A DNA stretch of 64,000 nucleotides from the NCBI GenBank assembly GCA_035486995.1, contig DATHMO010000212.1, positions 26,476 through 90,475 on the forward strand. Reading direction: 5' to 3'. The DNA comes from Bryobacteraceae bacterium (lineage in GTDB: Bacteria; Acidobacteriota; Terriglobia; Bryobacterales; Bryobacteraceae). Positions 10,163 to 51,548 of the stretch are shown here, in pieces; the stretch's first letter is position 1; each line of letters begins with the position of its first letter. The position numbers and the translations under genes were made by a program. A model generated the notes under the pieces. That model saw only the letters and a list, made by a program, of their open reading frames with translations. It did not search any database and was not told the origin of the DNA.

Positions 10163-10195
10163 AACGCCGCCCTCCTTTCTTCTTCGAGGCTGGGA

Positions 10196-10459
10196 CTATC
10201 GAAGAAAAGGGGGCGGACGTTGGTAGAGGGACGCTGCGAAGTACCGCGCTCGTGCAACCGGTTCCTGCGCGAGCGGAGCGATGGGGCGCTGGTAGCGAAT
10301 GACGCGTCTGGTGTGAACCTGCTGCTCGGAGCGCTCCTGCGCAATCCAGACGATCGCGCATCGGGCATCGCCCGGCCGCGCGCTGGTGACTGGCACGGCG
10401 GCACCGGAGGATAGCGCCAATAGCGCGCCGAGGAGCCAGGTGATCGCTCGCTTGTTCAC
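10196..10459 (-). CDS. small hypothetical secreted protein
   Basis: GTG start preceded by GAGGA. Signal-peptide-like MNKRAITWLLGALLALSSGAAVPVTSA. Fills the gap between two co-directional genes. No homology recognised. Confidence 0.35.
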   Translation of the reverse strand: MNKRAITWLLGALLALSSGAAVPVTSARPGDARCAIVWIAQERSEQQVHTRRVIRYQRPIAPLAQEPVARARYFAASLYQRPPPFLR

Positions 10460-29636: not shown

Positions 29637-29713
<77 letters not shown>

Positions 29714-30738: not shown

Positions 30739-31344
30739 ATGCTAAACCAAGTGCGTTTGGCGCTCGCCGTTTTTTGCGCCGTCCCCGTTCTGGCTGTTCA
30801 GCCGTCGATCCCCTTTACTCAAGTTACTGCCGTCGTAATGCCCAATGGGCGATACTCACGCGTCGCCATAGGCGCCATGGGTCGTGAGGCCGCCCATATC
30901 CTCAAGAAATCCGGCGTCTCCCTCGCGTGGCGCATCGGGGACCCTGGACAGAGCGTCGACGGACTCCTCGTCGTAGTGAAGCTGGTTGGCCGTTGCGACA
31001 TGGATGGGCCGGCGGCGATCCTGAAGGCGGGTCCGCTCGGCTGGTCGCATGAGGCGAATGGCGTAGTGCTCCCGTTCAGCGATTTGGCTTGCGACAATAT
31101 TCGCGGCCAGGTACAGAGCGCTCAGGTGACCGGGAATCCGTTGCGCGGCAATGTGTTGCTCGGTCGCGCGATGGGCCGTGTGCTCGCCCACGAGCTGTAT
31201 CACATTGTTGCGGATACCGCTAAGCACGCTGACGCCGGCGTCACGCAGTCTGGCTTATCGGCACGAGAATTGACCTCCGGGCAGCTCGAATTCCAGCCGT
31301 CCGACGTGGAGGCGATGCGAATTGGCTTGCGCCAGGCGCGTTAG
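30739..31344 (+). CDS. hypothetical secreted protein with HExxH motif (putative zinc metallopeptidase)
   Basis: Signal peptide [19 protein letters not shown]. Contains LAHELYHIV (HExxH). No family recognised. Confidence 0.55.
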
Positions 31345-32039
31345 TGCGCGTGCGAATGGGTGTGTTGCGCGGGCCGGCCCGCAAGATCTTTCACCGTTAC
31401 CACGCGATGTCGCGATTCCACGGGCTGGCTCATTTGTTGCCGCACCCAGGCCGTTAATTCGGGAACGCCCAAGCCTGCGCGCAGATTTGTGAACAAAAAA
31501 GGGCGATCGCCGCGCATTTTGCGCGCGTCGCGATCCATCACGTCGAGCGAGGCTCCCACATACGGCGCGAGATCGATCTTATTGATCACCAGTAAATCGG
31601 ACCGGATGATTCCCGGACCGCCCTTGCGCGGAATCTTGTCGCCGCCGGCGACGTCGATCACGTAGATTGATACGTCCACCAGCTCCGGGCTGAACGCCGC
31701 AGCCAGATTGTCGCCGCCGCTTTCGATGAAAACGAGTTCGAGGCCATGGTGCAGGTGCTCCAAGCTTTCGATTGCTTCGATATTCATCGACGCGTCTTCA
31801 CGGATGGCCGAGTGCGGGCAGCCTCCAGTTTCTACGCCAGTGACTCGATCGGCTGGCAGAGTTCCCTGGCGGATCAGAAATTCCGCGTCCTCGCGCGTGT
31901 AGATGTCGTTGGTGACGACGGCCAGGTTCACCGAGGGCCACAAGCTCTGGCTCAGAACATGAACGAGGGCCGTCTTGCCACTGCCGACCGGTCCGGCGAC
32001 GCCGATTCGAAAAGCGCGATGCGTGTGATTATGGCTCAT
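31341..32039 (-). CDS. ureG: urease accessory GTPase UreG
   Basis: [15 protein letters not shown]-loop and a SIMIBI-type body. His-rich ends MSHNHTHR... and ...HTHSHAH. Confidence 0.92.
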
Positions 32040-32042
32040 AAA

Positions 32043-33761
32043 TCAGAACAGAAAGTAGCGTTGCGCCAGCGGCAGAACGCTGGCCGGTTCGCAAGTGAGA
32101 AGGTCGCCATCGGCGCGGACTTCGTACGTTTCTGGATCCACTTCGATCTGCGGCGTGGCCGAATTGTGGATCATGTCGGCCTTTCCGATCTGCCGGCAGT
32201 TTTCGACGGGTACCAGACGCTTCTTCAACCCGAGCGTTTCGACATGCGACAGCGACGCCAACGAAATAAACATTACGCCGGTGGATTGCGGCGCTGCGCC
32301 GAAGGATCCGAACATTGGCCGATAGAGCACCGGCTGCGGCGTTGGGATCGACGCGTTCGCGTCACCCATCACGCTCCACGCGATGAATCCGCCCTTGATG
32401 ATCATTTCCGGTTTGACGCCAAAGAAGGCCGGGCTCCACAACACCATATCCGCGAGCTTGCCGGTTTCGATGGAGCCAACTTCGTTCGCAATCCCGTGTG
32501 CGATGGCCGGGTTGATGCTGTACTTCGCGACGTAGCGTTTGATGCGCTGGTTATCGCTACGCGACGAATCGCCCGCGAGCTGGCCGCGCTGCACCTTCAT
32601 CTTGTGCGCAGTCTGCCAGGTGCGCGTCACCACTTCACCGATGCGCCCCATGGCTTGTGAATCGCTCGACATCATGCTGATCACGCCAAGATCGTGCAGA
32701 ATGTCTTCGGCCGCAATAGTCTCCTGCCGGATGCGGCTTTCGGCGAAAGCGACGTCTTCGGGAACCTGCGGATTCAGGTGATGGCAGACCATGAGCATGT
32801 CCAAATGCTCGGCGATGGTGTTCACCGTGAGCGGTCGCGTTGGGTTCGTTGACGACGGAAGGATGTTGGGAAGCCCGGCGATCTTGATGATGTCCGGCGC
32901 ATGGCCGCCGCCCGCGCCCTCGGTGTGATAAGTGTGGATCGTCCTGCCGGCAATGGCCGCGATAGTGTCGTCGACGAAACCCGCCTCGTTCAGCGTGTCG
33001 GTGTGGATGGCGACCTGGACATCGAACTCGTCTGCCACGCGGAGGCAGGCATCAATGGCCGCGGGGGTCGTGCCCCAATCCTCGTGCAACTTCAGGCCGC
33101 ACGCTCCGGCCAAAACTTGTTCGGCCAACGGATCGCGCGCCGACGCATTTCCCTTCCCGAGAAACCCGAAGTTCATTGGCCAGCCTTCGGCGGCGCGAAA
33201 CATCTGCTCCAGATTCCAACGGCCGGGAGTGCACGTCGTCGCATTGGTGCCCGTCGCAGGGCCCGTTCCACCGCCGATCATCGTTGTAGTTCCGTTCGAC
33301 AACGCTTCGTAAATCTGCTGTGGCGAGATGAAATGGATGTGGCTATCAATTGCGCCGGCAGTCAGGATTTTGCCTTCGCCCGCGATCACTTCGGTAGACG
33401 CACCGACAACCAGCTCGGGATCCACGCCCGCTTGCGTATCGGGATTTCCGGCCTTGCCGATTTTGACAATGCGGCCGTTGCGAACCCCAACATCGGCTTT
33501 CACAATGCCCCAATGATCGATAATCAGCGCGTTAGTTATCACCAGGTCGAGCGCGCCGTGCTCGGATTCACGCGTTGCGGTGGAGCTTTGGCCCATGCCG
33601 TCGCGAATCACTTTGCCGCCGCCGAACGTGATCTCGTCGCCGTAGACGGTGTAATCCTGCTCCACTTCAGCGATCAATTCGGTGTCGGCCAAGCGGACGC
33701 GATCGCCACGTGTGGGTCCATATAAATCGGCGTAAGTGCGGCGCGGGATCTTCGCGCTCAT
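32043..33761 (-). CDS. ureC: urease alpha subunit
   Basis: 572 aa. Contains [35 protein letters not shown] and MVCHHL, which are the canonical UreC nickel-site motifs. Confidence 0.95.
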
Positions 33762-34069
33762 TTGTGCAGAGCTCCGTTCACTGTTCCGTTGTGTCCATGC
33801 ACGGCTCGGCGGCCAGCGAGCGCCACCAGCGGAACTTCTTTTTCTTCGCCCGGCTCAAAACGAATCGCGGTACCGGCTGCGATATCCAGGCGCATGCCGT
33901 AAGCCGCAGAACGATCGAAATCGAGCGCGGAATTCACTTCATAGAAGTGATAGTGGCTGCCCACCTGCACTGGCCGATCGCCACGGTTGCTGACGACAAT
34001 CTGAGCCGTAGCTCGGCCGGCGTTCACTTCCACATCGCCCTCGTCGAGAAAATATTCACCCGGATGCAT
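33758..34069 (-). CDS. ureB: urease beta subunit
   Basis: [19 protein letters not shown]...[27 protein letters not shown] overlap with ureC. Confidence 0.92.
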
Positions 34070-34077
34070 AGAGGCTC

Positions 34078-34380
34078 CTATTGAATCGGATCGTGAATCG
34101 TGACCAGCTTGGTGCCGTCTGGAAACGTGGCTTCCACTTGCACTTCGTGAATCATCTCGGCGATGCCGTCCATGACGTCCGCGCGGGTGAGAATGGTTGC
34201 GCCCAGGCCCATGATCTCGGAAACGCTTCTGCCATCACGCGCCGCTTCCAGGATCTCGGCCGAAAGGATTGCCATGGCCTCCGGATAGTTCAGCTTCAGT
34301 CCGCGCGCGCGCCGCTTTTTCGCCAATTCAGACGCGACGAAGATCATGAGCTTGTCCTGCTCGCGCGGAGTCAGATGCAC
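34078..34380 (-). CDS. ureA: urease gamma subunit
   Basis: Track ORF trimmed to the GTG at 34380, preceded by AAGGAGG. The 100-aa product (M)[34 protein letters not shown] is the canonical UreA. Confidence 0.9.
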
Positions 34381-34397
34381 CGGCTGCCCTCCTTCAT

Positions 34398-35243
34398 TCA
34401 ATGAACTTTTCGGGGAAGCGTGGCGACTCGGCCACGGAGAATCCACTTGGCGGCTTTCCAAATTTCCACCAAGCCGCCCGCTAGCGAACGCCCGCTGACC
34501 GCGAGACCGCGAATCGCGAGACCGTGCGCCCGTAGCGACGTCACTCCCCATAATACTTCAGCGCTCGTAAGTTGATCAGCAACTGTCTGCATTTGCGCTT
34601 CGAAAGTTTTCCAATAGGCGGACGGCTCGCCCGCGCGGCAGATATAGCACGAGGCAAAATGGCGAAACGGGCCGAGGCGCGCGATGGAATCCATACGTTG
34701 AATCAACGGCGCCAGCGTCCAGCGTTCGATCGCGATCGGCTGCCCGTCGGCCATTAGTTCAAAATCGGAAGTGAGCGATTCAAAGCGGAAGATTTCGTCA
34801 GATGCTTCGCGGCCGGGCGCCACGCGGTCGCACCAAATCAGCGAGCCGCCACGCTCGATCTCGACGCGCGTCTTTTGGTCGAAGCGGGAGCCGGCAAATG
34901 GTATCAACTGGTCGGGTAAGTATTCCAAGTACGCATCCGAAGCGATGCTGACTCGCATGCACTGGGATGCACGGCTGCCCGGCGATCGGCTGCGATACAC
35001 GCGAGTGGCGCCGGTGGACGTTACCTGCGCTTGAGCGTGCGGACCAACGTCCACTTGCCACGAGAGCGCATCCGTGTCGAGGATTCCGCCCGAGAGATTG
35101 TGCACGTGAGCGAGAGTCTCGCCCGTAGGGGCAGGAAAACCTCGCACCACGCGCCAGGGGGGCTGCTGTTGCTTGACGCGAAGAATGGTCGCGCCGGCGT
35201 CAGTCGCTTCGAAAGACAAGTGGAGATTTGATGATGGCGTCAT
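34398..35243 (-). CDS. ureD: urease accessory protein UreD
   Basis: 281 aa. UreD/UreH-like pattern ([17 protein letters not shown]...[11 protein letters not shown]). Sits between ureF and ureA. Confidence 0.85.
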
Positions 35244-35246
35244 CAG

Positions 35247-35900
35247 TCAACTCATGAAGAGGCGCGTATAGAGGCTGGCGTGTCGAGCTGAAGCGAGGTC
35301 CGCGAGAGGCGTGAAGCAGCTGGTTTGGCGTGGTCCAATGGAGGGGCTCTGTTCCGCGATTTGGACGATCGCTGGTTTCAAGCTCCAAAGAATCTGGTGC
35401 GCTTGCGTCTGGCCGAGCGGGAGCAAGCGCTGGCACGCGGAGACCAGAGCGGTGATGGATTGTTGGAGGTACGCCGCGGCGGCCGTTGGAGCATCGATCG
35501 CAAAAACGCCTGCGGCCAAACCAAAGCACGGCGCTAAGTGAACTTCTCCGCCGAGTTCGGACGCGGAGAGCAGCAACTCGTCTCCCGATATATTCGCGGC
35601 TAGCCGCAAGAAGCGCCGGCCCATCGCGGCCGAGGCATCGCGGGATTCGCGGGCCAATTTTCGCGCGCCGAGTTCGGCGTTCCAACAGAACCAATCGTGA
35701 ATGGCCGCGCCACAACTTGCCGCGCAGTAGGCCGCTTCCAGCGCACCGGTTTCGGACAGATAATCCCGCAAGAAAGGCTCTAGAGTTTCGGTGGTTAGAA
35801 ATCCCGCATCAACCAGCGATTCAAGCCCGAACGAATGCGCCGCGCCTCCGATGGGGAACGCACTATCCGCGAGCTGCTGGAGCTGAAGTAGTGGCAGCAT
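35247..35900 (-). CDS. ureF: urease accessory protein UreF
   Basis: Start set at ATG 35900 ([30 protein letters not shown], the canonical UreF N-terminus). ATGA overlap with the upstream gene stop. Confidence 0.85.
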
Positions 35901-37525
35901 CACGCAAAGAGATACTGCACGTCCTCGGGCAACGGGTCGCACGCCGCCGCTTCATCCCAGCCGAGCTCGGCGCGAACGACGTCGAAGAATGCGCTGCGAT
36001 TCACATCTTGCCCTTGCAGCCGGCTGGCGAGAATGTCCGCCGTAGCAAGATTGCTGCTCGCGGCGACGTAGCCCGCATTCGAAATCAAATCGTAATTGCC
36101 CCAGCGGCTGCGATAAAGCCCCTTTCGATTCCATCTCACAGCCGAATACAGGGCCTCGTCGATGCCGACGAGCGGGAACAGCGCGCCGTAAAGCTTCGCA
36201 AGATCACAACACACACGCGCGAAATAAGTGATGTTCGGCCCATGCCAGGCCGTGCGCAACGGATCGGGGATCAAACCGAATAAATTCGATATCGCAAGGC
36301 GCGTCGGTCCTTTGAATTTGGCAAAGCTGATCATCGGGCAGCCGGCGTATTGGAGCAGCACTTCTGGAACGTTGTCTTGATTGCATGCGCCGTCCCAGTA
36401 GGCTTCAGTGACGTTGACGTACTCGGCGTGGTGCTTGTTCATGACGTCAGCGAGGCCAGTGCGGCGCAAATACTCGGCGTCCTGTTGCCGGATCCAGGCG
36501 CGATGCTCGCGCGCCTCGTGCTCCCAATCGAATTTCGCCTCTTCGACGTTTCTCGACGATGTGTGGCCTTCGAGGATGATCGCAGGCGCCGGCAGAGCCC
36601 GCAGCAAAAGATCGAGCGCGGCTGGGTCAGTATACGTGCCGGTGGCATAACCGTGCCACGTTACTTTGACGAGCACGCGCTCGGGATTCCCCGGCGGCAG
36701 AACCTGTTCCAGCACGCTCGCCATGCGGCCGCAATCCCGTACGGAGGCGATCACGCCAGCGCCCACGGTCCACGACGCCGACTCGGCGGCAACGCTTCGT
36801 TTTGGCGAAGCAACCCGTACAAATTCCCGCGCACGCTTCTCGTTCCATAATCGCGTGATCCGCTGCGTGAGCCAGGCCGTGATCGCAGGATGATCGCCCG
36901 GCGGTTCTGCCATCCGCCACGCGGCGGCTTCCGGATGATCGCGCTGAAAGTTCTGCAGAATCACTTCCGTAAATTCGACGTGCTCGGTTCGCCATAGCGC
37001 TTGTGCAAGCACCACCCAATTCAGAGGACGCTGCGCGCATTTTCCAAGCGTATGCGCGAGAAATGGTTGCGCATGCCGAACGAATCCCACTTCGCCCGCG
37101 GTGAGGCTCAACCGTTCCCAAATTAAGCGCATCAGCCGATAGCTCTGCGCGCGGCTGCCCGCGTCGCCGTGTCCGCTAGCCGCGAAGATTAGTCCGGTGG
37201 CGGGACCCACTCGGTCGGCCAGAGCTTCCACGAGTAACGGATGGCCGGGATCGACGTCGTCATGATGTATAACAAGCGCCGGTTTCGCGCGGCGTGCTTC
37301 GCCAATGGCACGGCCCAGCGCCTCCCGCTGGAGCAGGTTGAAATCGAGCACGGTGGGAAGCACGAAGATCTCGCCTGAATCGCGAGCAGAGATCGCGGCC
37401 GATAACGCCTCGAACGATGTCGCTTCGATCGCCGGGCGGAAACCGAGAATCGGCTCACATGCCGCAGCCAGCGCATTCACGTCCCAACGCGGAATATCCG
37501 TAACGAGAATGAACGCTGGGGTCAG
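35900..37525 (-). CDS. two-domain protein of unknown function: CbiX-like (chelatase-fold) N-half + DUF362-like C-half; start codon unresolved
   Basis: The ORF is open from 37729, but its first ~68 codons are the out-of-frame overlap with the ureohydrolase gene. The N-half shows two CbiX-like half-repeats (AFILVTD...[11 protein letters not shown] and [27 protein letters not shown]...[10 protein letters not shown]). The C-half shows [24 protein letters not shown], which looks DUF362-like by eye. The stop overlaps the ureF ATG. Domain calls need HMM confirmation. Confidence 0.6.
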
Positions 37526-38673
37526 TGCAATCTCCCGCCGATCCGGCCGTGCTTGGTCATCGATGCCAGCACGTCCACCATTGCGCGCACGGCAACCAGC
37601 GCGGTTATGTCCGAAATATCGTAGGGCGGCGAGACCTCCACCGCTTCCATGGCCGCGATGCCCTCCTTGGCCACGCCTTTCAAAATCGCGAGAGCCTCGC
37701 GTGGGAGGAAACCGCCGGGCTCGGGCCATCCGGTTCCGGGGACAAATCCGGCATCTACTGAGTCAACATCGAAGGAGAGATACACGGCGCTCGCGCCTTT
37801 CCACGCCACTTCCAGCGCGATCTCGATTGTCTTGTCGATCCCGATGCGTTCGATGTCTTGAATGGTGAGAACCGTCGATCCGCGCTCACGGCCTTTCTTC
37901 ACACCCGGCCGCGGCACCTGCCAACCGCCGATGCCGACCTGCACGAGATTGGTCGGCGGGCAATTCGGAATATTGGTCGCGTGGAACCACGGACAAGTAT
38001 GCATAATCTCGTCCATGTCTTTTTCCTGCGTGTCGATGTGGCGGTCCAGGTGAATAATGCCCACCTTGCCTTCGATGCATTCCGCCACTCCGCGCGCGCA
38101 TGGAAAGCCGATGGAATGGTCGCCGCCCATGATCATCGGCAGCGTTCCTTGCGACAGAATATGCGCGACGCCCTTTGTAATTTGATCGTGACTCTTGGTG
38201 ATGTTGGCGGGGCAAAAGATATCGCCCACGTCGCACATCTTGAGCGACTCGCGCAGATCCACGCCGAGCTCGAAGTTGTAAGTGGTGTACAGCGACGAGA
38301 TGCGGCGGATTCCTTGCGGCCCAAAACGCGTCCCGGCGCGGTAGGTGGTCCCGATATCGAAGGGCACACCGACAAAAGCTACGTCGTATTCACCCACCTT
38401 GCGCACGTCTTCCAGATACGGCGTTTTGAGAAACGTGTTGATGCCGGACCAGTGCGGCAGCTCGCCGCGTTGGAAACAACTGATCTCGCTTTTGTCTTCG
38501 ATCGAATCGACGCATTCCAGGCCGAATTCCTTGCCGCGCCGGACTTCTTCCTGCCATTGGCGCGATGGAATCTGGCCCTCATCCCGAAGCGCTTTCATGC
38601 CTTCGAGTTCGGGGAGTTTCACTTCTCTGGTGTGCTCCCGATGATTCGGGGCATGGCTCTTGTAGAAGGACAT
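37522..38673 (-). CDS. arginase-family ureohydrolase (agmatinase / guanidino-acid hydrolase / guanidine hydrolase-like), long form
   Basis: 383 aa. All metal-ligand motifs are present: GGDHSIG, HLDRHIDT (D-x-H-x-D) and SFDVDSVDAGFVPGTG. It has an N-terminal extension of about 70-75 aa relative to classical ~300-aa agmatinases. Confidence 0.9.
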   Translation of the reverse strand: MSFYKSHAPNHREHTREVKLPELEGMKALRDEGQIPSRQWQEEVRRGKEFGLECVDSIEDKSEISCFQRGELPHWSGINTFLKTPYLEDVRKVGEYDVAFVGVPFDIGTTYRAGTRFGPQGIRRISSLYTTYNFELGVDLRESLKMCDVGDIFCPANITKSHDQITKGVAHILSQGTLPMIMGGDHSIGFPCARGVAECIEGKVGIIHLDRHIDTQEKDMDEIMHTCPWFHATNIPNCPPTNLVQVGIGGWQVPRPGVKKGRERGSTVLTIQDIERIGIDKTIEIALEVAWKGASAVYLSFDVDSVDAGFVPGTGWPEPGGFLPREALAILKGVAKEGIAAMEAVEVSPPYDISDITALVAVRAMVDVLASMTKHGRIGGRLH

Positions 38674-38700
38674 TTAGGATGATTGTACTTGCTTTCCTCT

Positions 38701-39585
38701 CTAGGCTTCAGCGGCGTCCACTTCTTCAGTGCGGAGGCCGTCGGGGAAGGTGCTTTGTTCAACGCGGCGGATGAGACCGGCGATTCTTTGTTCGTCGCAA
38801 CCATCCGGCACGGGGAGATCCAAGACGATATTCGCGCCATCGTCATCGCCGCCCGTGCGGCCAAGCGCAATCACACGTGTGGCCAGGATCACCGCTTCGC
38901 GCGGATTGTGAGTCACGAACAGTATGGTGGTTCCAGTTTCGCGCCAAAGATCCTTGATGAGCCGCTGCATTCCCAGTCGCGTTCCGGGATCGAGTGCGCT
39001 GAAGGCTTCGTCCATCAGGAGAACCTTGGGGCGCATAATGAGCGCCTGTGCAATCGCCACGCGCTGCTGCATGCCGCCCGAAAGCTGGTGCGGATATTTG
39101 ACGGCGTCCGATTCGCGCAGACCCATGCGACGCAGATATCCGAAGGCTTCCGCTTGAAACTCCTGGCGGCGCACGCGGCGGGCGGGAGACAGGCTGCCGA
39201 AGAATCCAACCTCGGTGACTTCGAGCCCGAAGGTGATGTTTTCGAGGACCGTGCGGTCCGGGAACAGCGAGTATTTCTGCGGCACATATCCGCAACGGCG
39301 GTCGGGCCGATGGCGAGGGCTGCCTTCCACCAGCACTTGGCCGCTCAAGGGCATTTCCTCGGCGAGCACCAAACGCAGCAACGTGGATTTTCCGCAGCCG
39401 GTTTGTCCGACGATGGAGATAAACTCGCCGGCAGTGATGTCCAGACTGACGCCGTTCAGAATATTCCGGGCGGGTTTGCCGGCCTGGCCATACGCAACAT
39501 GAACGTCCTGGATCGAAATCATGGCAGGCCCGCGTTGTGCCGCTGCCGCAGGTTTGTCGTCCATGATCGTTGGTACTGTGGCCAC
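38701..39585 (-). CDS. ABC transporter ATP-binding protein (NitT/TauT family)
   Basis: Walker A GQTGCGKSTLL, signature LSGGMQQRVAIAQAL, Walker B LLMDEAFSALD. GTG start 6 nt after the permease stop. Confidence 0.9.
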   Translation of the reverse strand: MATVPTIMDDKPAAAAQRGPAMISIQDVHVAYGQAGKPARNILNGVSLDITAGEFISIVGQTGCGKSTLLRLVLAEEMPLSGQVLVEGSPRHRPDRRCGYVPQKYSLFPDRTVLENITFGLEVTEVGFFGSLSPARRVRRQEFQAEAFGYLRRMGLRESDAVKYPHQLSGGMQQRVAIAQALIMRPKVLLMDEAFSALDPGTRLGMQRLIKDLWRETGTTILFVTHNPREAVILATRVIALGRTGGDDDGANIVLDLPVPDGCDEQRIAGLIRRVEQSTFPDGLRTEEVDAAEA

Positions 39586-39591
39586 GCTTCC

Positions 39592-40449
39592 TTACGCCTC
39601 CTGGAACCAGGGATGCAGCTTCCGGTTCAACGTGCGCATTCCGAAATCCACCAGAAACAGCAGCAGCGCCACCCACAGCACGTAAGGAATGATCGTATCC
39701 ATTCCCATGTGGCGGCGCAGCAGAGCGATGCGATACGCCAAGCCGTCTTGCGAGGCGATCATTTCGCCGGCGAATAGGAACAGCATCACCGACTTCAAAT
39801 TGAGACGGATGCTATTCAACACGCGGGGCCAGATTTGTTTGAACACGATCCGGTAAGTGATGGCGAAATCACCCGCGCCCAACGTGAAGCCCTTCACGAT
39901 CTGCTCCTTGGGCACGCCTCGTGTGAGATTGAACGAATCCAGGATGATGGTCGGTGCGACTCCAACCACGATCAACATCACTTTCGCCAGCTCGTCGATC
40001 CCAAACGCGATGAAGAGAATGGGAAGCAGCGAGAGCGCGACGATTTTGTCGAAAAACAGAACGAATCGCAGAAAAACCGACCCGACGTATGGGAACATCC
40101 CCATGTGCAACCCGAGCAGGACCGCTGGAAATAGCAGCGCCATGCTGATCAGGAAGCGCCGCCCCGTGGCCATCGTATCTTTCCACAACATGCTGTTTCG
40201 AATTTTCGTGGCCAACGACTGCTGATTAGGATCGCCTGTCACTTCGTCGTCCTCGGCCGGCTTCAACGTCGCGTCGGCGAAAGCCCGGCCCATTTGATAA
40301 AGCGTGGGCATCACTCGATCATCCGGATTTTCCAGATGGCGGGCGCGCGACACCCAGAGGTAACTCACGATTCCAGTGGCGAACAAGAGCCAGGAAAGAA
40401 TCCAGACCGTGGTGCGGGATGGCTGGGCATGAATCTGCAGGATGCTCAC
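39592..40449 (-). CDS. ABC transporter permease (NitT/TauT family)
   Basis: Track ORF trimmed to the GTG at 40449, which overlaps the SBP stop (GTGA). 285 aa, about 6 TM segments, EAA-like loop LGAGDFAITYRIVFKQIWPRV. Confidence 0.85.
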   Translation of the reverse strand: MSILQIHAQPSRTTVWILSWLLFATGIVSYLWVSRARHLENPDDRVMPTLYQMGRAFADATLKPAEDDEVTGDPNQQSLATKIRNSMLWKDTMATGRRFLISMALLFPAVLLGLHMGMFPYVGSVFLRFVLFFDKIVALSLLPILFIAFGIDELAKVMLIVVGVAPTIILDSFNLTRGVPKEQIVKGFTLGAGDFAITYRIVFKQIWPRVLNSIRLNLKSVMLFLFAGEMIASQDGLAYRIALLRRHMGMDTIIPYVLWVALLLFLVDFGMRTLNRKLHPWFQEA

Positions 40450-41519
40450 AGCTTGCCTCCAGCGGCGAGCTCCATGTAGGACGCGTCGAACCGCAATCGC
40501 ACGCGATCCTTCTTGCCTTGCACGGAGCCATCGGGGAAGCGAATCGCCACGTCGTCCGGCGAACTGGTTTTGTCGCCCAGCAATCCATGCGAGAAACAGA
40601 ACTGCCGCACCAGCTCCATGGTCTTTTTCAGTTGCTCCGACTTGGTCATCTCGAGCGCGGAGGGCGCGGTGTAAAACAAGTGCGTGGTCGCAAGTTGCTC
40701 CTTGTACGAAGCCAGGGTGTCTTCGGAGACTTCGGCGATGGACGAAAGCACCTTGTCGCCTTCCGGCCCCGGCTTGGCCATTTGCGCCGTTAGTTCGTAC
40801 CATGCGCCAGCGATCGCTTTCGCGAAGCGTTGCCCGGACCCATCCGGCCGATTCAGCACTTCGGTGCGCACCACCATCAGGTCCAGAATTTCTCCAGGGA
40901 TCTTCGAAGAATCGAAGATCTTGGTGATCCCTTTGCCCTTGAGGATTTGCGAGACCAGCGGCTTCCAGGTGACCACAACATCCTGGCTTGTATCGCTCAG
41001 GAATGCGCCCGCGATGTCGGAATCCGACGTGTTCACATACTTCACACGCTTCAATTCGCCCGAGAGATTGTTAATCGTCATCGCGCGCTCAAACAAGTAT
41101 TGCGAGACGGTCTTCTCCACCAGCAGAACGCGCTTACCTGGGATCTGTCCCAGCGTGAGATTGTGGCGCACCAGCACCGCGTCGTTCCCGTTCGAATAAT
41201 CGCCAACGATGATGGACGTGGTATCGACGCCCGCCGCCGCTGGCATATCGAGCGCCTCCATGTTGGTCATCGCGCACGCGTCGATGTTCTTAGCTACGAA
41301 TGCATCCAGCGACGGCGCGTAGTCGAAGCGCTGGACCTTGATGGCGACGCCGTATTTGTCCGCCCACTTCTTCAGCAGCCCGGACTTGGCCATATACTGA
41401 TACGGGTCCCAGCCGACGTAAACGGACCATCCGAGCGTGAAAGTCGGCGGATTACCGGCCGCGCGCAAGGCGCCCGACAGCAGAAACAGCGCGGGTAAAA
41501 TTAGGAGGAATTTTCGCAT
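40446..41519 (-). CDS. ABC transporter periplasmic substrate-binding protein (NMT1/NitT-TauT type; resembles the urea/guanidine-carboxylase-associated SBP family)
   Basis: Signal peptide MRKFLLILPALFLLSGALRA. Contains FTLGWSVYVGWDPYQY...KKWADKYGVAIKV...CAMTNMEALDMPAAAGVDTTSIIVGDYSNGNDAV. Confidence 0.85.
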   Translation of the reverse strand: MRKFLLILPALFLLSGALRAAGNPPTFTLGWSVYVGWDPYQYMAKSGLLKKWADKYGVAIKVQRFDYAPSLDAFVAKNIDACAMTNMEALDMPAAAGVDTTSIIVGDYSNGNDAVLVRHNLTLGQIPGKRVLLVEKTVSQYLFERAMTINNLSGELKRVKYVNTSDSDIAGAFLSDTSQDVVVTWKPLVSQILKGKGITKIFDSSKIPGEILDLMVVRTEVLNRPDGSGQRFAKAIAGAWYELTAQMAKPGPEGDKVLSSIAEVSEDTLASYKEQLATTHLFYTAPSALEMTKSEQLKKTMELVRQFCFSHGLLGDKTSSPDDVAIRFPDGSVQGKKDRVRLRFDASYMELAAGGKL

Positions 41520-41573
41520 CTCAACCGTCCGTGCAGCAGGGCACCAGGATGGCTACATGGCCGGTTGGATCTC

Positions 41574-42206
41574 TCAGTATATCGCAACGAGCTTGATTCC
41601 AACCGCCGCGCTCGCTCGGTCGCCTTGCTTATCTTTTTCCTTGTCCTTTTCGCCGCGCAGAGCCTTCTCGATTGCCACCGCCAGCTCCGGGGAATCGGGC
41701 GCCACGTCAGGCTCAAAACGCTGCACGATCTTGCCCTCGCGATCGGCCAGAAATTTCGTGAAATTCCAACGGATGGGTCCACCCGTGCTGGGATTGGCTT
41801 GCTTGTCCGTTAGAAATTGATACAGAGGCGATATGTGCTCGCCGGCGAGCGAGAGCTTGGCGAACATCGGGAACGTGACTTTGTATTTACCGGCGGCCAG
41901 CTGCTGAATCGCGTCGTTGCCATCGGGCTCTTCCTGGCCAAAATCGTTGCTCGGAAACGCGAGAATCACCAGCCCCTGGTCTTTGTATTTTTCGTAGAGC
42001 GCTTCCAGGCCCTCATACTGCGGCGTGAAGATGCTGTGGCTGGCAACGTTCACGATCAGCAGCACCTTCCCGCGATAAGAAGCCAAGGGCGCCGGTTTGC
42101 CGTCGATCGCGAGCGGAATGTAATCCAGAACCGTGGTGGCGCCGAGAAACACGCCACTCATGGCAAACAGGATCGCGGCTAGAGCGCCAACGCGGCTAAA
42201 ACTCAT
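41574..42206 (-). CDS. glutathione peroxidase-fold protein lacking both conserved cysteines, membrane-anchored/secreted
   Basis: GPx motifs LLIVNVASHSIFTPQYEGLEALYEKY, AFPSNDFGQEEP and WNFTKFL. The peroxidatic position is Ser (AGC, 42033-42035) and the FPCNQF Cys is also Ser. N-terminal hydrophobic segment. Start ATG 42206 overlaps the upstream gene by 11 nt. Confidence 0.8.
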   Translation of the reverse strand: MSFSRVGALAAILFAMSGVFLGATTVLDYIPLAIDGKPAPLASYRGKVLLIVNVASHSIFTPQYEGLEALYEKYKDQGLVILAFPSNDFGQEEPDGNDAIQQLAAGKYKVTFPMFAKLSLAGEHISPLYQFLTDKQANPSTGGPIRWNFTKFLADREGKIVQRFEPDVAPDSPELAVAIEKALRGEKDKEKDKQGDRASAAVGIKLVAIY

Positions 42207-45200
42207 ATCGAAGTGCGAACTGCATTTCACGCGGCGGCATCGTGTTTTGATATTCGCCGAACTGCGTCGGATTTTGCAACGAGAGACTCGGCTGGATGAA
42301 GTTTACATTATTAAACGCGTTGTACGCTTCCGCCCGGAACTGGATGCTGTGTCCTTCCCAAGGTAGCGCGAAAGACTTCGCAACCCCGATATCGAAGTTC
42401 TTCATTCCTGCCAGGCGGACCAGGGCCCGCTCTCCAGCCGCCGACCCCGGGTAGCCATCCGCAAAACTATTAGCCGCGTTTGTGCTGCCGAACACGCTTG
42501 GATTGCCGCTGCTATCGTAGCCATTCTGCACCCTGTAAGAGCCGGTCGCGATTGCGAGAGTACCCTGCCAGTAATTGACATCCCAGGTTTGATTGCCTTG
42601 AACCACGCTCGGCAGCCCGCTTGAGAATCGCATGATGCTCGAAACCTGCCAGCCCCCGAAAATCTCGTTGGCCCAGCCCGGAGCATTATTCCAGAACGGC
42701 TTGCCCTTACCAACCGGGAGTTCATACACCACGTCGATGTTGGCCTGATTACGGATATCGAAATCCGACGATCCGCGGAATTGGCCGGGGTTGAAAATAT
42801 TCTGAATCACCGCGCCATCCTGACCGGAAGAGCCTTCGGCAGCCGACGCATTATCGATGGAATGGGACAGCGTGTAGTTGAAGTCGAAGGAGAGGCCGGA
42901 ACTGAAAGCGCGCCTCACGCTGACGGTGCCGGCATTGTAATTGGCATCGCCCGCATTCATCCACGTCGGCATCGAACTTCCTTGCGGGGCGAAAAACGTA
43001 TAGCAGCCGAACTTAGAAGCGCAAGTGCCGGGCGCGGTGTATTGGCCAGGAATGCGGTCCACCGAGTGCAGCATGTCCAGATAGCTGCCTCCGTACACTC
43101 CGTAAATGCCGTAAAAGTAGTTCGCAGAGGCGCTGCCCGGGAAGAAAGCGTTCTTGACGGCCGCGAACATATCCTGAATGTACGGGTTGTTGGGCACCAG
43201 CGAAGGATTGGTCATTACGGCCTGTGCCGCGGCGCTCGGGCTGCAGTTCTGCGTATAGTTACCCATCGATGCACAGATCGAGTTGTAGGTATTCCGGATC
43301 GACGTCATGCTCGTCGTCCAAGTCTGGCCCGATCCTGGATCGTATAGATTCTCAAGCGGCGTGTACACGTCGCCCTGCAACAGCAACTTGCGAGAAAGCC
43401 TGCCAGCATACGATACTTCCAGCGTCATCTTGCCTGGTATTTGGCGCGCGAACGACGCATTCAGCAGGATCGAGTAGGGCGACTTCAAGTCAGGATAGAT
43501 TCCCTGAAACTCGCCGACGATTCCGTTGACGTCCGGCGGGGTGTAGGGAAAGCCCGTCGTTGGAGCGGCTGGAAGAGTCGGCACACTTCCGTTGTAACGC
43601 GGTGAGGTCGTATAAGTATAAGAGACCGGATTGTTCAGCGTCGTCGCCAACCCGAATGAACCGAACTGATCGAACTCGGTGATCAATTCGCTGCCAAAGC
43701 GGTCGTAAAGCATCGCGCCGCCCATCCGGAAGACGCCGCCGTTTCCAAAGATGGCTTGCATCAGACCGCCGCGATCCTTGGGACTGTAGGCCAGAGCGAA
43801 TCGCGGTCCGAAGTTGTTATCGTCGGGATTATACCAGCTCGACTTGCCGTTCACCGGGCCGTTCGGGCTGTAGCTCAGGATCGCATTGGGCATGGCGTTG
43901 GAAGGAACGCCCTCCGCTCCCAATCCGACGCGCTGGGCGAAATATTGATCGAGGCCGATGTTGGGAGCCACTTGCAGCCCATTCGCCTCGTAGGGCGGCG
44001 GGTCGTTGGTATAGCGCAGCCCAAAGGTCAGAGTCAATTCGCGCGTGGCACGCCATTGATCGCTGAGGAACCCTTCATACTCGCGCATTACGAACGCTCG
44101 AACATCGGGTGCGCCTTGCGGCAACAGCGTGCCGCCCTTCCCCACCTGGTAAGTAACTTGTACATTGTTGACCAGGCCGAGCAAAACTCCCATCGCGGAC
44201 GCAACTGCGAACGGGTTGCCAAGCGCGAAATTCGCATTGCCGGTCTGGCCGATCATGTAGTTCTGCACATCGGTCTGAATGTCTTCACCCAATCCCACTG
44301 CCACGTTCGCGCTAAATCCATAGGTTGGATAAGAATTCGCGTAGGTGAATTTGTTATTCGTCATCACTCGGAAATTGAGACCCGTGCTGATGGTGTGCTT
44401 GCCCTTGGTCCAAGTGAGAGTGTCGACGATATTTTTGACAGGCAGAATTCGTCCATTGCCGCGCGCAAAGTAGTTCTGCAGCTCGTCCAATGGGTACAGC
44501 TGGAAGGAGTCGCCAGTTGTTCCTGAGTAATTCAAGCCCTGGCGAGTGTAGCCAAAGGTTAGGCTGTTGATCAAAGTCGGCGTCAGAATGGCGGTATATG
44601 TCGCCGAGATGCCCTTGCTGTTGTTCAGGAGCTCACTGGCGGGTTGCTGGCTGGGAAATTGCGCCAAAGCAGTGGGCTGATCCTGATTCGCATTCGACAA
44701 TGTGCCGCGAACCGAAACCGTGTGCTTCGCCGCGCTATCGAGGATAAAATCCATTTTGCCCACGTAGGCGCGATTATCCAGCGCATCCGGCGCGTTGAAG
44801 CGATATCCGGTGAAATTCAAGCCGCCATCGGATTGCCCCGAGTTACCGCCGCCCCCGTAATTGGGGTCGTTGCCCACCGGGTATTGATTCAGAATGTTGA
44901 GATATCCCTGATTCACGCCGATGTGCAGAGGATCGATTGCCTGGATCTGAGCAGGACCAAGCGTATAAACGTTGTTGTTGGCGTCGGAAAACGTTAGGAT
45001 GCCTTGCTTCAGACTTTGGCTAGGAACCAGGCGCTCCACCGCTTGCGAGCTCGCGTCGATGCGGCGCTCGTAGTTGAAGAAATAGAAGATGCGATCCTTC
45101 TTTATCGGCCCGCCCAGCGATGCTCCGAACTGGTTGCGGTTGAGAGGTGTCACCGGAACACCGTCGCGATCGTTGAACCAACTGTTGGCCGCGGTAACCG

Positions 45201-46029
45201 TATTGCGGTTGTATTCGTATGCCGAACCGTGCAATCGATTGGTGCCGCTCTTGGTGATCAAAACCACCTGCCCGCCCGACGAGCGGCCTTCGTCGGCGCC
45301 CTGGCCGGCCACTGTAACGCGAAACTCCTGGACCGAATCGAGTGGGATCGGCAACACGGAGTTAAAGCCCGCAACGGGACTCTGTCCGCTGGCATTGGTA
45401 CCCTGCTGAGATCCAACATCCGCTTGGCCTCCGATGCCGGAGTTCTCGTTGTCGTTCACATCCACGCCATCCAGGATGATGTTGTTCTGATCGCGCCGCG
45501 ATCCCATCACTTCTCCGGTTTGCGTTACGCCGGGCTGCAGGCTCAGCAACTCGACGACGTTGCGCGTATCCAGCGGCAACTGCTTGATCGAATGCTCGGT
45601 GAAGGCATTGCCGATGGAGGCGTCGGAAGTGCTGATGGTTGAGGTCTCGGCCGTGACGTTGACCGTTTGCCCCGTCGTGCCCACCTCCAGTTGCAGATTG
45701 AGTGTCTCTGGAACGTTGATCTGCAACACCACATGTTCGCGTGTCGCTTGCGCGAAGCCAGGCTTGGTCACGGTCATCGTATACTCACCGGGCATTTGCT
45801 GCAGGAACTGATATTCGCCGGTGTTATCGGTCACAACCTGTCGCGACGCGCCGGTGGCGACACTCGTCAACTGTACGATCGCCGCCGGAATCACGGCGCC
45901 CTGCGCGTCGGAGATCACACCACGTAAGGAACTCGTGGATTGAGCCTGAAGCATTGAGACTGCGGACAGCAGGCTTAGCCCCGCTAAAAGAATTCGCCAG
46001 GAGCGACCTGAGCAAGTCGTCGTGAACAT
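42196..46029 (-). CDS. TonB-dependent receptor-like outer membrane protein with N-terminal carboxypeptidase-regulatory-like domain
   Basis: 1277 aa. Signal peptide, then CarboxypepD_reg pattern LRGVISDAQGAVIPAAIVQLTSVATGASRQVVTDNTGEYQFLQQMPGEYTMTV. Long beta-rich body with a terminal ...FALRYEF. AAGGAGAG Shine-Dalgarno. Confidence 0.85.
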   Translation of the reverse strand: MFTTTCSGRSWRILLAGLSLLSAVSMLQAQSTSSLRGVISDAQGAVIPAAIVQLTSVATGASRQVVTDNTGEYQFLQQMPGEYTMTVTKPGFAQATREHVVLQINVPETLNLQLEVGTTGQTVNVTAETSTISTSDASIGNAFTEHSIKQLPLDTRNVVELLSLQPGVTQTGEVMGSRRDQNNIILDGVDVNDNENSGIGGQADVGSQQGTNASGQSPVAGFNSVLPIPLDSVQEFRVTVAGQGADEGRSSGGQVVLITKSGTNRLHGSAYEYNRNTVTAANSWFNDRDGVPVTPLNRNQFGASLGGPIKKDRIFYFFNYERRIDASSQAVERLVPSQSLKQGILTFSDANNNVYTLGPAQIQAIDPLHIGVNQGYLNILNQYPVGNDPNYGGGGNSGQSDGGLNFTGYRFNAPDALDNRAYVGKMDFILDSAAKHTVSVRGTLSNANQDQPTALAQFPSQQPASELLNNSKGISATYTAILTPTLINSLTFGYTRQGLNYSGTTGDSFQLYPLDELQNYFARGNGRILPVKNIVDTLTWTKGKHTISTGLNFRVMTNNKFTYANSYPTYGFSANVAVGLGEDIQTDVQNYMIGQTGNANFALGNPFAVASAMGVLLGLVNNVQVTYQVGKGGTLLPQGAPDVRAFVMREYEGFLSDQWRATRELTLTFGLRYTNDPPPYEANGLQVAPNIGLDQYFAQRVGLGAEGVPSNAMPNAILSYSPNGPVNGKSSWYNPDDNNFGPRFALAYSPKDRGGLMQAIFGNGGVFRMGGAMLYDRFGSELITEFDQFGSFGLATTLNNPVSYTYTTSPRYNGSVPTLPAAPTTGFPYTPPDVNGIVGEFQGIYPDLKSPYSILLNASFARQIPGKMTLEVSYAGRLSRKLLLQGDVYTPLENLYDPGSGQTWTTSMTSIRNTYNSICASMGNYTQNCSPSAAAQAVMTNPSLVPNNPYIQDMFAAVKNAFFPGSASANYFYGIYGVYGGSYLDMLHSVDRIPGQYTAPGTCASKFGCYTFFAPQGSSMPTWMNAGDANYNAGTVSVRRAFSSGLSFDFNYTLSHSIDNASAAEGSSGQDGAVIQNIFNPGQFRGSSDFDIRNQANIDVVYELPVGKGKPFWNNAPGWANEIFGGWQVSSIMRFSSGLPSVVQGNQTWDVNYWQGTLAIATGSYRVQNGYDSSGNPSVFGSTNAANSFADGYPGSAAGERALVRLAGMKNFDIGVAKSFALPWEGHSIQFRAEAYNAFNNVNFIQPSLSLQNPTQFGEYQNTMPPREMQFALRYEF

Positions 46030-46233
46030 ACGCCTCTCCTTGAACTGGAAGTTGGGAAATCACCATGGAGCGACAGGCTCGGGGCGCCGACAAGGCGAGA
46101 GGGCCGCGGTAGCGGTGCGGCGAAGAACTCAGCGAAGAGTTGATGTCAAATCTGCGAGGCTGTGCGGAAGTAAGAAATCCACACTAAGAATTACAACTAT
46201 TCTCCGAAAAACAACCCCACAGACGGTTTTCTA

Positions 46234-46262
46234 ATTATCACTTCGTTCAGAAGCTCTGTCAA
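46234..46262 (-). promoter_or_regulatory. sigma70-like promoter TTGACA-N17-GATAAT upstream of the TonB-dependent receptor gene
   Basis: On the minus strand, TTGACA lies at 46262-46257, then a 17-nt spacer, then GATAAT at 46239-46234. It sits in the only large (280 nt) intergenic gap of this block. It predicts a leader of ~200 nt before the ATG at 46029. Confidence 0.45.
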
Positions 46263-46309: not shown

Positions 46310-47758
<1,449 letters not shown>

Positions 47759-47775
47759 CGTTGTTCCCTTTCTTC

Positions 47776-50592: not shown

Positions 50593-50594
50593 GA

Positions 50595-51548
50595 TCAAAG
50601 ACCCTTTGGATCTATTCTCCACACTTCATGAAACTCGTGATTGGACAGCCACAGCGAACCCAAGCCCACTCGCAAGGCATCGCCGCCTTTGCCGACGTAT
50701 TGCGCCAGCACCCGGTTCGTAGCCGGATCGATCTTGGACAGCGGTTTGCCGATCGCCGTCACCCAAACGTAGCCTTCTCCCACTGCGATATCGCCGCCCC
50801 CACCAGGCACGCCGACTTCAATGGTAGCGGACACTTTGTTCGTCGCGGGATCAATGCGCGACACGCTGCCGTCTCCCTGATTGAGCGTCCAAACGCTGCC
50901 CAGACCGGTGGCCAGGAACCGCGGCGATGGCCCTACCGGAATCTTCGCCATCACTTTTTCAGTCTTCGCGTCCACGCGCGTCAAGAGATTGCCCTTCGTG
51001 CTCGTGATCCAGACCGAGCCCGCGTCGAACGCTGCCGTGAACGAACCCGGCGGGATCGGAATTTTCGAAACCACCTGGTTCTTCGCCGGATCGATGCGCG
51101 ACAGCACGCCCGCCGCGTCCGAAGGCATCCAGATGCTACCTTCACCGGCCGTGATTCCGCCTTCCGTGTTCGCGACTCCCGACGGAATCGACGCCACGAT
51201 CTTGCCCGACTTCACATCCACGCGCTCGACGGATCCATCGCTGCATATCGGCACCCAGACGCTGCCGAACGCAATCGCGAGCCCGGAGCACGGCGTCTTC
51301 CCAACGGTGATCACCGCGCCAATCTTGTTGGTAGCACTATCCAGCTGCGAAATATTGTTTTTCGGATTGTTCGAGATCCAAACGCTGTCGCCGATCGCGA
51401 CCCAATCAGGGGATCCAGGTATAGAGAACTTCGCGATCGCGTGCAATTCCGCCATGGGATGTTGCACAGCTTTCAACTCGGGGCCGTCGGCATGCGCCGC
51501 AGCCATCGCCGTCACCGCGAAAAAGTAAACCAGCCGGTCGATCTTCAT
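50595..51548 (-). CDS. secreted beta-propeller repeat protein (YVTN/Vgb-like)
   Basis: Start at MKIDRLVYFFAVTAMAAAHA (51548). Repeated ~40-aa units of the form G..WV....G.V.RID..TNKV. Confidence 0.7.
   Translation of the reverse strand: MKIDRLVYFFAVTAMAAAHADGPELKAVQHPMAELHAIAKFSIPGSPDWVAIGDSVWISNNPKNNISQLDSATNKIGAVITVGKTPCSGLAIAFGSVWVPICSDGSVERVDVKSGKIVASIPSGVANTEGGITAGEGSIWMPSDAAGVLSRIDPAKNQVVSKIPIPPGSFTAAFDAGSVWITSTKGNLLTRVDAKTEKVMAKIPVGPSPRFLATGLGSVWTLNQGDGSVSRIDPATNKVSATIEVGVPGGGGDIAVGEGYVWVTAIGKPLSKIDPATNRVLAQYVGKGGDALRVGLGSLWLSNHEFHEVWRIDPKGL

Follow-up and report, generated by a model that had tools for sequence, protein, structure and literature searches.

A predicted guanidine-to-ammonia operon of Bryobacteraceae and the CbiX-like/DUF362-like fusion gene that accompanies its guanidine hydrolase gene

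Introduction

Guanidine has only recently been recognized as a natural nitrogen source, with cyanobacteria and comammox Nitrospira as the organisms known to be involved. In Synechocystis and in Nitrospira inopinata, the guanidine hydrolase GdmH yields urea and ammonium, and urease completes the route (PMC12186494). The Synechocystis sp. PCC 6803 locus gdmH-ghaA-ghaB-gimABC (sll1077-sll1082) includes an adjacent NitT/TauT-type ATP-binding cassette (ABC) transporter whose substrate-binding protein (SBP), GimA, binds guanidine with a Kd of ~97 nM (PMC12704784). The nickel ureohydrolases studied have adjoining nickel chaperone genes needed in vivo, GhaAB for GdmH and MetAB for metformin hydrolase (PMC12704784, PMC11271267), whereas the authors of the N. 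inopinata study state that the mechanism of nickel loading is unclear (PMC11410670). Here, a 13-gene block (31341-46262) is described from a 64,000-nucleotide stretch of a Bryobacteraceae bacterium, hereafter the window (GCA_035486995.1, contig DATHMO010000212.1, positions 26,476 to 90,475), in which a GdmH-type hydrolase gene is followed by a gene for a CbiX-like/DUF362-like fusion protein.

Like the Synechocystis locus, the block combines a GdmH orthologue with an adjacent NitT/TauT-type importer, has an accessory gene directly downstream of gdmH and would hand urea to urease. It differs in carrying the fusion instead of GhaAB, in lacking the guanidine-I riboswitch and the NtcA system, and in having urease in the same operon and genes for a TonB-dependent receptor (TBDR) and a glutathione peroxidase-like (GPx-like) protein in front. 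With the N. inopinata locus (riboswitch, APC permease, guanidinase; 9FEK) it shares an orthologous enzyme and a urease-using guanidine route, but that locus has an APC permease, a riboswitch and no known nickel chaperone. The guanidine-urea-ammonia route is already known while the operon arrangement is new; the literature searched holds no mention of gdmH and urease physically joined in one operon. The explanation that best accounts for the locus, with a probability of roughly 0.7, is a pathway operon in which the fusion is a helper dedicated to GdmH.

A GdmH-type hydrolase and its near-obligate partner

In a sequence search of the PDB, the hydrolase best matches Synechocystis Sll1077/GdmH (7ESR/7OI1, E = 9.6e-151) and, at E = 4e-150, the N. 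inopinata guanidinase (9FEK), followed by a guanidinobutyrase (1e-49) and agmatinases (1e-36 or weaker); it shares 62% of its residues with the Synechocystis enzyme and 60% with that of Nitrospira. All six metal ligands are kept (H186, D210, H212, D214, D302 and D304, corresponding to N. inopinata H182, D207, H209, D211, D299 and D301), as they are in 80 of 80 aligned sequences. Ten diagnostic positions have been listed for the N. inopinata enzyme, in which T105, H222, W313 and E344 are proposed to confer guanidine hydrolysis (PMC11410670). The window enzyme has the diagnostic residue at ten of ten positions, the four specificity residues being T110, H225, W316 and E346. It groups with the characterised guanidinases rather than with agmatinases, GbuA, GpuA or arginases, and lies within the guanidinase clade of a neighbour-joining tree and outside the Mn-dependent agmatinase clade, which answers the placement check proposed earlier. 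Judged from its sequence, the hydrolase is thus a GdmH orthologue of the nickel guanidine hydrolase type and not an agmatinase. The original prediction had the block importing guanidine, agmatine or a similar guanidino compound, hydrolysing it to urea and feeding urease; this scheme is supported and narrows to guanidine itself, agmatine "or similar" being an unlikely substrate. A "divergent GdmH" at another locus (L018, ~9050-10210), with an apparent loss of T105 and W313 and a long branch, has its frame broken at the junction; an error of assembly or a pseudogene is the probable explanation.

The fusion gene follows gdmH almost without fail. Scanning a fusion-protein profile over one genome per GTDB species yielded 80 loci, which were searched with all 13 window proteins and whose neighbouring open reading frames (ORFs) were clustered. 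At 77 of these 80 loci the fusion gene is the next gene after gdmH and shares its strand; among the three exceptions, one contig begins or ends within gdmH and keeps its 3' end (L073) and one is truncated (L016), leaving a single locus truly without gdmH (L059) and an adjacency of 78/79 evaluable loci. The pairing spans Acidobacteriota, Planctomycetota (including the cultured Singulisphaera acidiphila DSM 18658), Verrucomicrobiota, Myxococcota, Tectimicrobiota (Entotheonella) and Binatia. In the reverse test, a GdmH consensus profile was run over metagenome contigs, a clade A locus being evaluable with at least 400 nt downstream. In clade A, to which the window enzyme belongs (73-100% identity to it), the fusion is downstream at 32/32 evaluable loci; in clade B (60-67% identity), at 0/33. 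At 18 clade B loci the position of the fusion is taken by a ~160-aa protein whose N-terminus is almost pure His, e.g., MPHDHAPHGHHHHHDHGHSHGHSH (L128 7207-7695; L125, L131, L132, L134-L136, L138, L143, L144, L146-L149, L153, L155, L156 and L160). This protein has no Pfam or NCBIfam match and is an obvious candidate for a nickel chaperone. In the genome set, the fusion also accompanies the GdmHs of Entotheonella and Binatia, whose identity to the Nitrospira enzyme is 78-82%; the linkage thus extends across the guanidinase tree. Genes of the HypA/HypB type (GhaAB) are missing among the 13 genes of the block and are not a conserved neighbour within 8 kb at the 80 loci.

In Planctomycetes, the fusion accompanies gdmH as a two-gene unit even with no transporter or urease nearby. 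Because it stays with gdmH where urease is absent, the fusion looks specific to GdmH, and the initial idea that nickel supply and maturation are shared between the two hydrolases is not supported. In Isosphaeraceae, GdmH has an N-terminal extension of ~50 aa with a twin-arginine motif, KRR(E/D)FLGAAAAAA (L035 8910-10211 in Singulisphaera acidiphila; L041, L044, L047, L050, L054, L060, L061 and L071), and the partner fusion has no signal peptide; the motif implies a periplasmic guanidinase exported by the twin-arginine translocation (Tat) pathway. An OprB-family porin gene adjoins gdmH in L035, and a homologous ORF of ~490 aa recurs at nine loci. At two metagenome loci (L137 3826-4653 and one more), a creatininase gene (PF02633, 2e-67) lies directly downstream of gdmH, a hint that the breakdown of creatinine and that of guanidine may be connected.

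Organization of the predicted operon

The block comprises 13 consecutive minus-strand ORFs, from 46029 to 31341, all at the positions first reported, with domains assigned by Pfam and NCBIfam. In order of transcription, the features are:

46234-46262, minus strand: sigma-70-type promoter TTGACA-N17-GATAAT (11/12 consensus match)
46030-46233, minus strand: leader of ~200 nt, candidate regulatory 5' untranslated region (conserved in 14 genomes)
42196-46029, minus strand: TonB-dependent outer-membrane receptor, 1277 aa (PF25183 OMP_b-brl_4, 1.5e-132; CarboxypepD_reg, 5e-19)
41574-42206, minus strand: GPx-like protein with a hydrophobic N-terminus (PF00255 GSHPx, 3.4e-33)
40446-41519, minus strand: periplasmic SBP, GimA-like, probable guanidine binder (TIGR03427 ABC_peri_uca, 462.9 bits, cut-off 333.9)
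39592-40449, minus strand: ABC permease, NitT/TauT type (PF00528, 2.5e-11; best NCBIfam match TauC/SsuC, below cut-offs)
38701-39585, minus strand: ABC ATPase (PF00005, 7.5e-33)
37522-38673, minus strand: gdmH, orthologue of Ni-dependent guanidine hydrolases (PDB matches; 10/10 diagnostic residues)
35900-37525, minus strand: CbiX-like/DUF362-like fusion, 541 aa from CTG (AlphaFold2 fold, DUF362-related C-half, gdmH adjacency)
35247-35903, minus strand: ureF (PF01730, 8.9e-30)
34398-35243, minus strand: ureD (PF01774, 7e-47)
34078-34380, minus strand: ureA, gamma subunit, GTG start (TIGR00193, 170.9 bits, cut-off 82.3)
33758-34069, minus strand: ureB, beta subunit (NF009682, 162 bits, cut-off 129)
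32043-33761, minus strand: ureC, alpha subunit (TIGR01792, 984.6 bits, cut-off 680)
31341-32039, minus strand: ureG, GTPase, last gene of the unit (TIGR00101, 314 bits, cut-off 204)

Re-measurement confirms the tight packing behind TTGACA-N17-GATAAT and, with one exception, the junctions listed in the original prediction. The TBDR and GPx-like genes overlap by 11 nt (ATG 42206, TAG 42198-42196); 54 nt separate the GPx-like and SBP genes; the SBP and permease genes share a GTGA overlap; and gaps of 6 and 27 nt precede the ATPase and hydrolase genes, respectively. The hydrolase/fusion junction is CTGA. The fusion/ureF junction, given earlier as ATGA, is in fact GCGTGATGC, i.e., either a GTGA overlap (GTG 35903) or a 1-nt TGATG overlap (ATG 35900). 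Further on, ureF and ureD are 3 nt apart, ureD and ureA 17 nt, ureA and ureB 8 nt; ureB and ureC overlap as ATGA, and ureC and ureG are separated by 3 nt. No convincing intrinsic terminator is present at the gene boundaries, with 18 terminator-like matches against 17.5 expected from shuffled sequence. The block has the anatomy of one operon, from which a single transcript may be inferred.

The SBP exceeds the equivalog cut-off of TIGR03427, the model for the urea-carboxylase region against which its placement had been proposed, and the permease and ATPase genes adjoin it. TIGR03427 describes binding proteins encoded beside "urea" carboxylases, enzymes now treated as guanidine carboxylases (PMC12186494). 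Near its N-terminus the SBP has an aromatic Y-x-x-W-x-x-Y triad. The ligand residues of GimA are W59, W62, F205, D135 and D233. The urease set is complete: UreA, UreB, UreC and UreG score above NCBIfam cut-offs, and UreD and UreF above Pfam gathering thresholds. Classical urease operons (ureDABCEFG) likewise contain UreABC with UreD, UreF and UreG in tight coupling; in the window the order is ureF-D-A-B-C-G, ureE is missing, the UreG ends are His-rich and the set is appended to a guanidine module. No UreE-like ORF is found in the related loci or in the unit, where the 13 genes leave no room for one. UreG is the sole G3E GTPase among the 13 products, and its His-rich termini (MSHNHTHR... and ...AQHTHSHAH) may take the place of UreE.

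One co-directional block thus encodes every step from uptake to three ammonia. Guanidine would be taken up by the GimABC-like ABC importer and split by the GdmH-type nickel hydrolase into urea and ammonium; the urea would then be split by the urease of the same block, UreABC, for whose maturation UreDFG would serve in the absence of UreE. That the operon turns external guanidine into ammonia in this way is very probable.

The neighbourhood is conserved in relatives, as the survey suggested earlier now documents: the exact order gdmH-fusion-ureFDABCG is kept in ~20 Bryobacterales genomes. The arrangement is therefore not an orphan, although the initial view of the CbiX/DUF362 gene as undescribed holds for its association with guanidine in the literature searched. 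The window proteins are 90-99% identical to those of a Danish Bryobacterales metagenome-assembled genome (L001), and a JGI metagenome contig of 4.5 kb (L115) has 100% identity over most of its length and 99% at ureD. Across the 80 loci, ABC importer genes occur at 40-50, the SBP together with gdmH at 48 and a complete urease set at ~27. In five genomes ureFDABCG lies upstream of gdmH, and at a few clade B loci ure genes directly follow it; the recurrence of gdmH-urease linkage in several layouts supports a functional connection.

The receptor, a TonB-dependent beta-barrel with a carboxypeptidase-regulatory-like N-domain, has no NCBIfam match; a homologue lies near gdmH, in either orientation, at ~30 of the 80 loci, and the GPx-like gene at ~21. 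The two would be lineage-specific additions to the front end, the TBDR presumably carrying substrate or nickel over the outer membrane. We know of no sequence signature for nickel specificity in FrpB4-like TonB-dependent receptors.

Several neighbouring genes flank the block. A convergent gene (30739-31344, plus strand) overlaps the ureG stop by 4 nt and encodes a 201-aa secreted protein with an HELYH motif, which has no Pfam match and is conserved at 21 related loci (e.g., L032 16763-17395). A Pfam-confirmed DUF1501 gene (46310-47758, minus strand) ends 47 nt before the -35 hexamer; beside it is a 948-aa ORF (46310-50622, minus strand, for the two together) that, by eye, resembles planctomycete-type cytochrome/DUF1553 proteins. 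A tRNA gene (29637-29710, plus strand) lies downstream of the operon. The DUF1501 gene, the 948-aa ORF and the tRNA gene appear to be outside the unit.

Promoter and leader

The TTGACA-N17-GATAAT sequence at 46262-46234 is the sole 11/12 promoter match in the 17.5 kb scanned (29.5-47 kb), a region in which the total of promoter-like sites is not above chance. The weak internal site reported earlier, TTGGAA-N15-TATACT at 41602-41576, is also present. Both hexamers and the ~200-nt leader are conserved in 14 related genomes (loci L001, L002, L004, L005, L007, L010-L013, L018, L032, L036 and L038), while the DNA upstream of the -35 hexamer is barely alignable. A conserved TTAGTACTTTCA box is found ~25 nt upstream of the -35 hexamer.

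The leader contains hairpin-like blocks (GTGCGG..CCGCAC, ACTCT..GAGT, GCCGC..GCGGC and GAGC..GCTC), and nhmmer finds it confined to the 14 genomes with the TBDR-first layout. Two results weigh against a structured regulatory RNA: RNAalifold gives no covariation support (covariation term +0.68), because the aligned sequences are too similar, and the folding energy is unexceptional (z-score -1.14). With neither of these signals and with a distribution limited to the 14 source genomes, the structured-RNA idea stays a lead, and the leader is a candidate for regulation, no more. An Rfam search over the operon and leader, run with gathering cut-offs and also with E-values as high as 5, detects no guanidine riboswitch (RF00442, RF01068, RF01763) and no other riboswitch, and the leader matches no Rfam family. 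Expression would thus proceed from a conserved sigma-70 promoter through a conserved 200-nt leader, without a known guanidine riboswitch. The Rfam model 5_ureB_sRNA (RF02514) matches with 94 bits at 33307-33606 (plus strand), antisense to the 5' part of ureC; since the model is the antisense of conserved coding sequence for the urease alpha subunit, this match is most likely an artefact of coding conservation and no evidence of a small RNA.

The fusion protein

More than 831 homologues of the fusion, in 210 clusters at 50% identity, are present in a collection of 5.8 billion proteins, many of them annotated as "sirohydrochlorin ferrochelatase" (JGI/NCBI names). The fusion matches no sequence of a solved structure at E up to 10. 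In its AlphaFold2 model (predicted local distance difference test, pLDDT, 81), residues 1 to ~240 form a two-lobed class II chelatase fold, for which the best Foldseek match is Bacillus subtilis SirB (5zt7, E = 5e-9, target template-modelling score 0.72). The Pfam CbiX model scores 21.5 bits, against a gathering threshold of 22, and 31 of 41 relatives match it at E < 0.01. The fusion thus shares the chelatase fold with SirB, CbiX, CbiK and HemH in its N-terminal 240 residues but lacks their conserved His pair and any tetrapyrrole context, and adds a 300-aa DUF362-like domain and linkage to a ureohydrolase. A D-x-V-D-P-x-H motif in the N-half is invariant across phyla.

The C-half, ~300 residues rich in Arg, Trp and Tyr, is among the most conserved parts of the protein. 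Against Pfam DUF362 (PF04015) the fusion reaches 21 bits, below the gathering threshold of 24; a profile of the C-domain retrieves stand-alone proteins of 300-355 aa that score 31-45 bits on PF04015, and, because these are bona fide DUF362 proteins, the C-half can be assigned to DUF362 by transitivity. DUF362 and the LarA N-domain belong to one Pfam clan, CL0471 (PMC11770544). One stand-alone relative (L161 5001-6065) lies beside hydantoinase A/B, OTCase-like (ornithine transcarbamoylase-like) and octopine dehydrogenase-like genes and an NMT1-type ABC importer, in what looks like an uncharacterised cluster for the catabolism of nitrogen compounds. In the literature searched, no paper links a CbiX/DUF362 fusion to guanidine and none contains both CbiX and DUF362; those that contain both CbiX and guanidine are, by title and abstract, on unrelated topics and mention each term once.

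The translation start of the fusion is unusual. In the window and in at least 14 Bryobacterales relatives, no in-frame ATG, GTG or TTG is conserved before the conserved first strand (T-P-A-F-I-L), and the codons after the gdmH stop show protein-level conservation with synonymous changes. The junction always reads c(a/g)CTGAc, with CTG overlapping TGA (37522-37525 in the window; L001, L003-L012, L032 and L038); in other lineages the fusion starts at GTGA or TTGA overlaps or at an ATG that follows within 0-12 nt. Most simply, translation would start at CTG, by initiation or by termination-reinitiation, which suggests low expression relative to GdmH and would be compatible with a catalytic helper. 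Other starts fare worse: the GTG at 37480 chosen by gene callers, 15 codons late, would remove the conserved first strand AFIL(V/A)TD, and an upstream ATG at 37729 is missing from most relatives. A programmed -1 frameshift joining GdmH and the fusion is rejected, as the zero-frame codons GGG AAA put the GGGAAAC-like string out of the register needed, the sequence in the window is GGG AGA TTG, and other lineages use the ordinary GTGA, TTGA or ATG starts.

Role of the fusion and alternative explanations

The fusion would be a cytoplasmic maturation factor dedicated to GdmH, which loads nickel into the enzyme, or helps to load it, and replaces the HypA/HypB-like GhaA/GhaB pair of cyanobacteria. 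Maturation or nickel loading is the best-supported reading of its role, at about even odds. It is favoured because the fusion sits in exactly the slot where other lineages have GhaAB or the His-rich protein, has a module derived from a metal chelatase, and travels with gdmH as a two-gene unit even with no transporter or urease near, and because the signal-less partner of the Tat-signal GdmH of Isosphaeraceae fits cytoplasmic metal loading before export. Tat substrates acquire their cofactors in the cytoplasm. UreDEFG, HypA/HypB, GhaAB and MetAB are likewise encoded beside their nickel-enzyme clients, on which they should act while these are still in the cytoplasm and neither assembled nor exported; the fusion, in contrast, has no G3E GTPase, HypA zinc-finger or His-rich tract and, if it is a nickel insertase, belongs to a protein family unrelated to the known ones. 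A bolder version, tentative and at somewhat less than even odds, makes the fusion the founder of a GTPase-independent class of nickel insertases, derived from a tetrapyrrole chelatase and maturing guanidinases in at least six bacterial phyla. With GhaAB and the His-rich 160-aa protein, non-homologous answers to this task would then number at least three, and in Isosphaeraceae the fusion would load a Tat-exported periplasmic guanidinase.

Several observations weigh against a maturation role. The GdmH of N. inopinata, for which no chaperone is known, shows activity although it is under-metallated (PMC11410670). A P-loop GTPase, a HypA zinc site and a His-rich tract are all absent from the fusion by Pfam, NCBIfam and inspection of the sequence, and the protein, with no nucleoside triphosphatase (NTPase) domain and no His-rich tract, is unlike known nickel-insertion systems. 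The catalytic His pair of chelatases is not conserved: position 119 is H, N, D, Q or E, and His182 is replaced by Leu in Singulisphaera, as mapped to SirB by motif position and not by structural alignment. In its very strong conservation, the Arg/Trp/Tyr-rich C-domain resembles the active site of an enzyme no less than a chaperone; modelled alone it reaches a pLDDT of only 62.6 with no significant Foldseek match, and its stand-alone relatives occur in heterogeneous contexts (hydantoinase cluster, RtcB/archease, methyltransferase) that are uninformative for function.

The same features suggest that the fusion could be an enzyme in its own right, catalysing a step adjacent to guanidine hydrolysis, e.g., the liberation of guanidine from one of its substituted forms or the disposal of a side product. 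The many Arg, Trp, Tyr and His residues of the C-domain that are invariant across phyla, the clan membership that DUF362 shares with the catalytic N-domain of LarA (PMC11770544), the relative in the hydantoinase/OTCase-like cluster and the lack of an NTPase or His-rich tract all fit this idea, which is nonetheless doubtful: in Isosphaeraceae the supposed consecutive enzymes would be separated, GdmH being exported and its partner cytoplasmic; the same slot holds evident metal-binding proteins in other lineages (PMC12704784); the CTG start of Bryobacterales suggests low, substoichiometric expression; and the other stand-alone relatives are in unrelated contexts. Were the fusion a structural or regulatory subunit in a stoichiometric complex with GdmH, or a chaperone for export or assembly that delivers no metal, this would explain the strict adjacency, the frequent translational coupling by 4-nt overlaps and the Tat signal on some partner GdmHs, and heteromeric nickel ureohydrolases such as metformin hydrolase do exist (PMC11271267, PMC11399263). 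Such a role is improbable, since the Synechocystis and N. inopinata GdmHs are active homohexamers with no subunit of this kind (PMC11410670), a non-canonical CTG start is hard to reconcile with 1:1 stoichiometry and the chelatase fold points to metal handling. A true sirohydrochlorin or cobalt chelatase located here by chance is a scarcely tenable identity for the fusion; the database names, the SirB-like fold and the weak CbiX matches among relatives agree with it, but the variable catalytic His positions, the sub-gathering Pfam score (21.5 vs 22), the lack of tetrapyrrole genes nearby and an adjacency to gdmH far beyond chance do not.

Doubts of another kind concern the pathway. An Mn-dependent agmatinase or guanidino-acid hydrolase, in an operon degrading agmatine or a guanidino acid, is hardly credible: the protein is in the Pfam Arginase family, and NCBIfam agmatinase models are its best matches, yet both fall below their cut-offs (203.6 vs 302 and 155.4 vs 174.3), the solved guanidinases are ~100 orders of magnitude closer in E-value than GbuA, GpuA and SpeB, and the four guanidine-specific residues (T, H, W, E) and the placement in the guanidinase clade point the other way. 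A more substantial objection, though still an unlikely one, is that the 15 kb are not one functional unit, with the TBDR and GPx-like genes, and perhaps urease, merely co-located or separately transcribed and the TBDR unrelated to guanidine or nickel. The conserved core is indeed only SBP-permease-ATPase-gdmH-fusion; the TBDR (sometimes on the opposite strand), GPx-like and urease genes are optional; and a 54-nt gap with a weak promoter-like site precedes the SBP gene. Against this stand the 13-gene order with overlapping junctions kept in ~20 genomes, the conserved promoter and leader before the TBDR gene, the failure to find terminators, and the OprB-type porin beside gdmH at planctomycete loci, so that an outer-membrane channel recurs. 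A single pathway operon with a GdmH-dedicated helper therefore stays the preferred explanation.

Implications

The operon, its ~20 syntenic relatives and dozens more gdmH loci mark abundant peat and soil Acidobacteria, Planctomycetes, Verrucomicrobia and Myxobacteria as likely guanidine users, with, in the window, the whole guanidine-to-ammonia route in what would be one transcript. The more novel result is the linkage of the CbiX/DUF362 fusion rather than the known pathway: the near-obligate partner of gdmH is a concrete, testable candidate for the nickel loading of guanidinases outside cyanobacteria. If this role is true, hundreds of "sirohydrochlorin ferrochelatase" annotations would be corrected, and the fusion would aid the production of active recombinant guanidinase, e.g., in ethylene-producing strains and guanidine biosensors.

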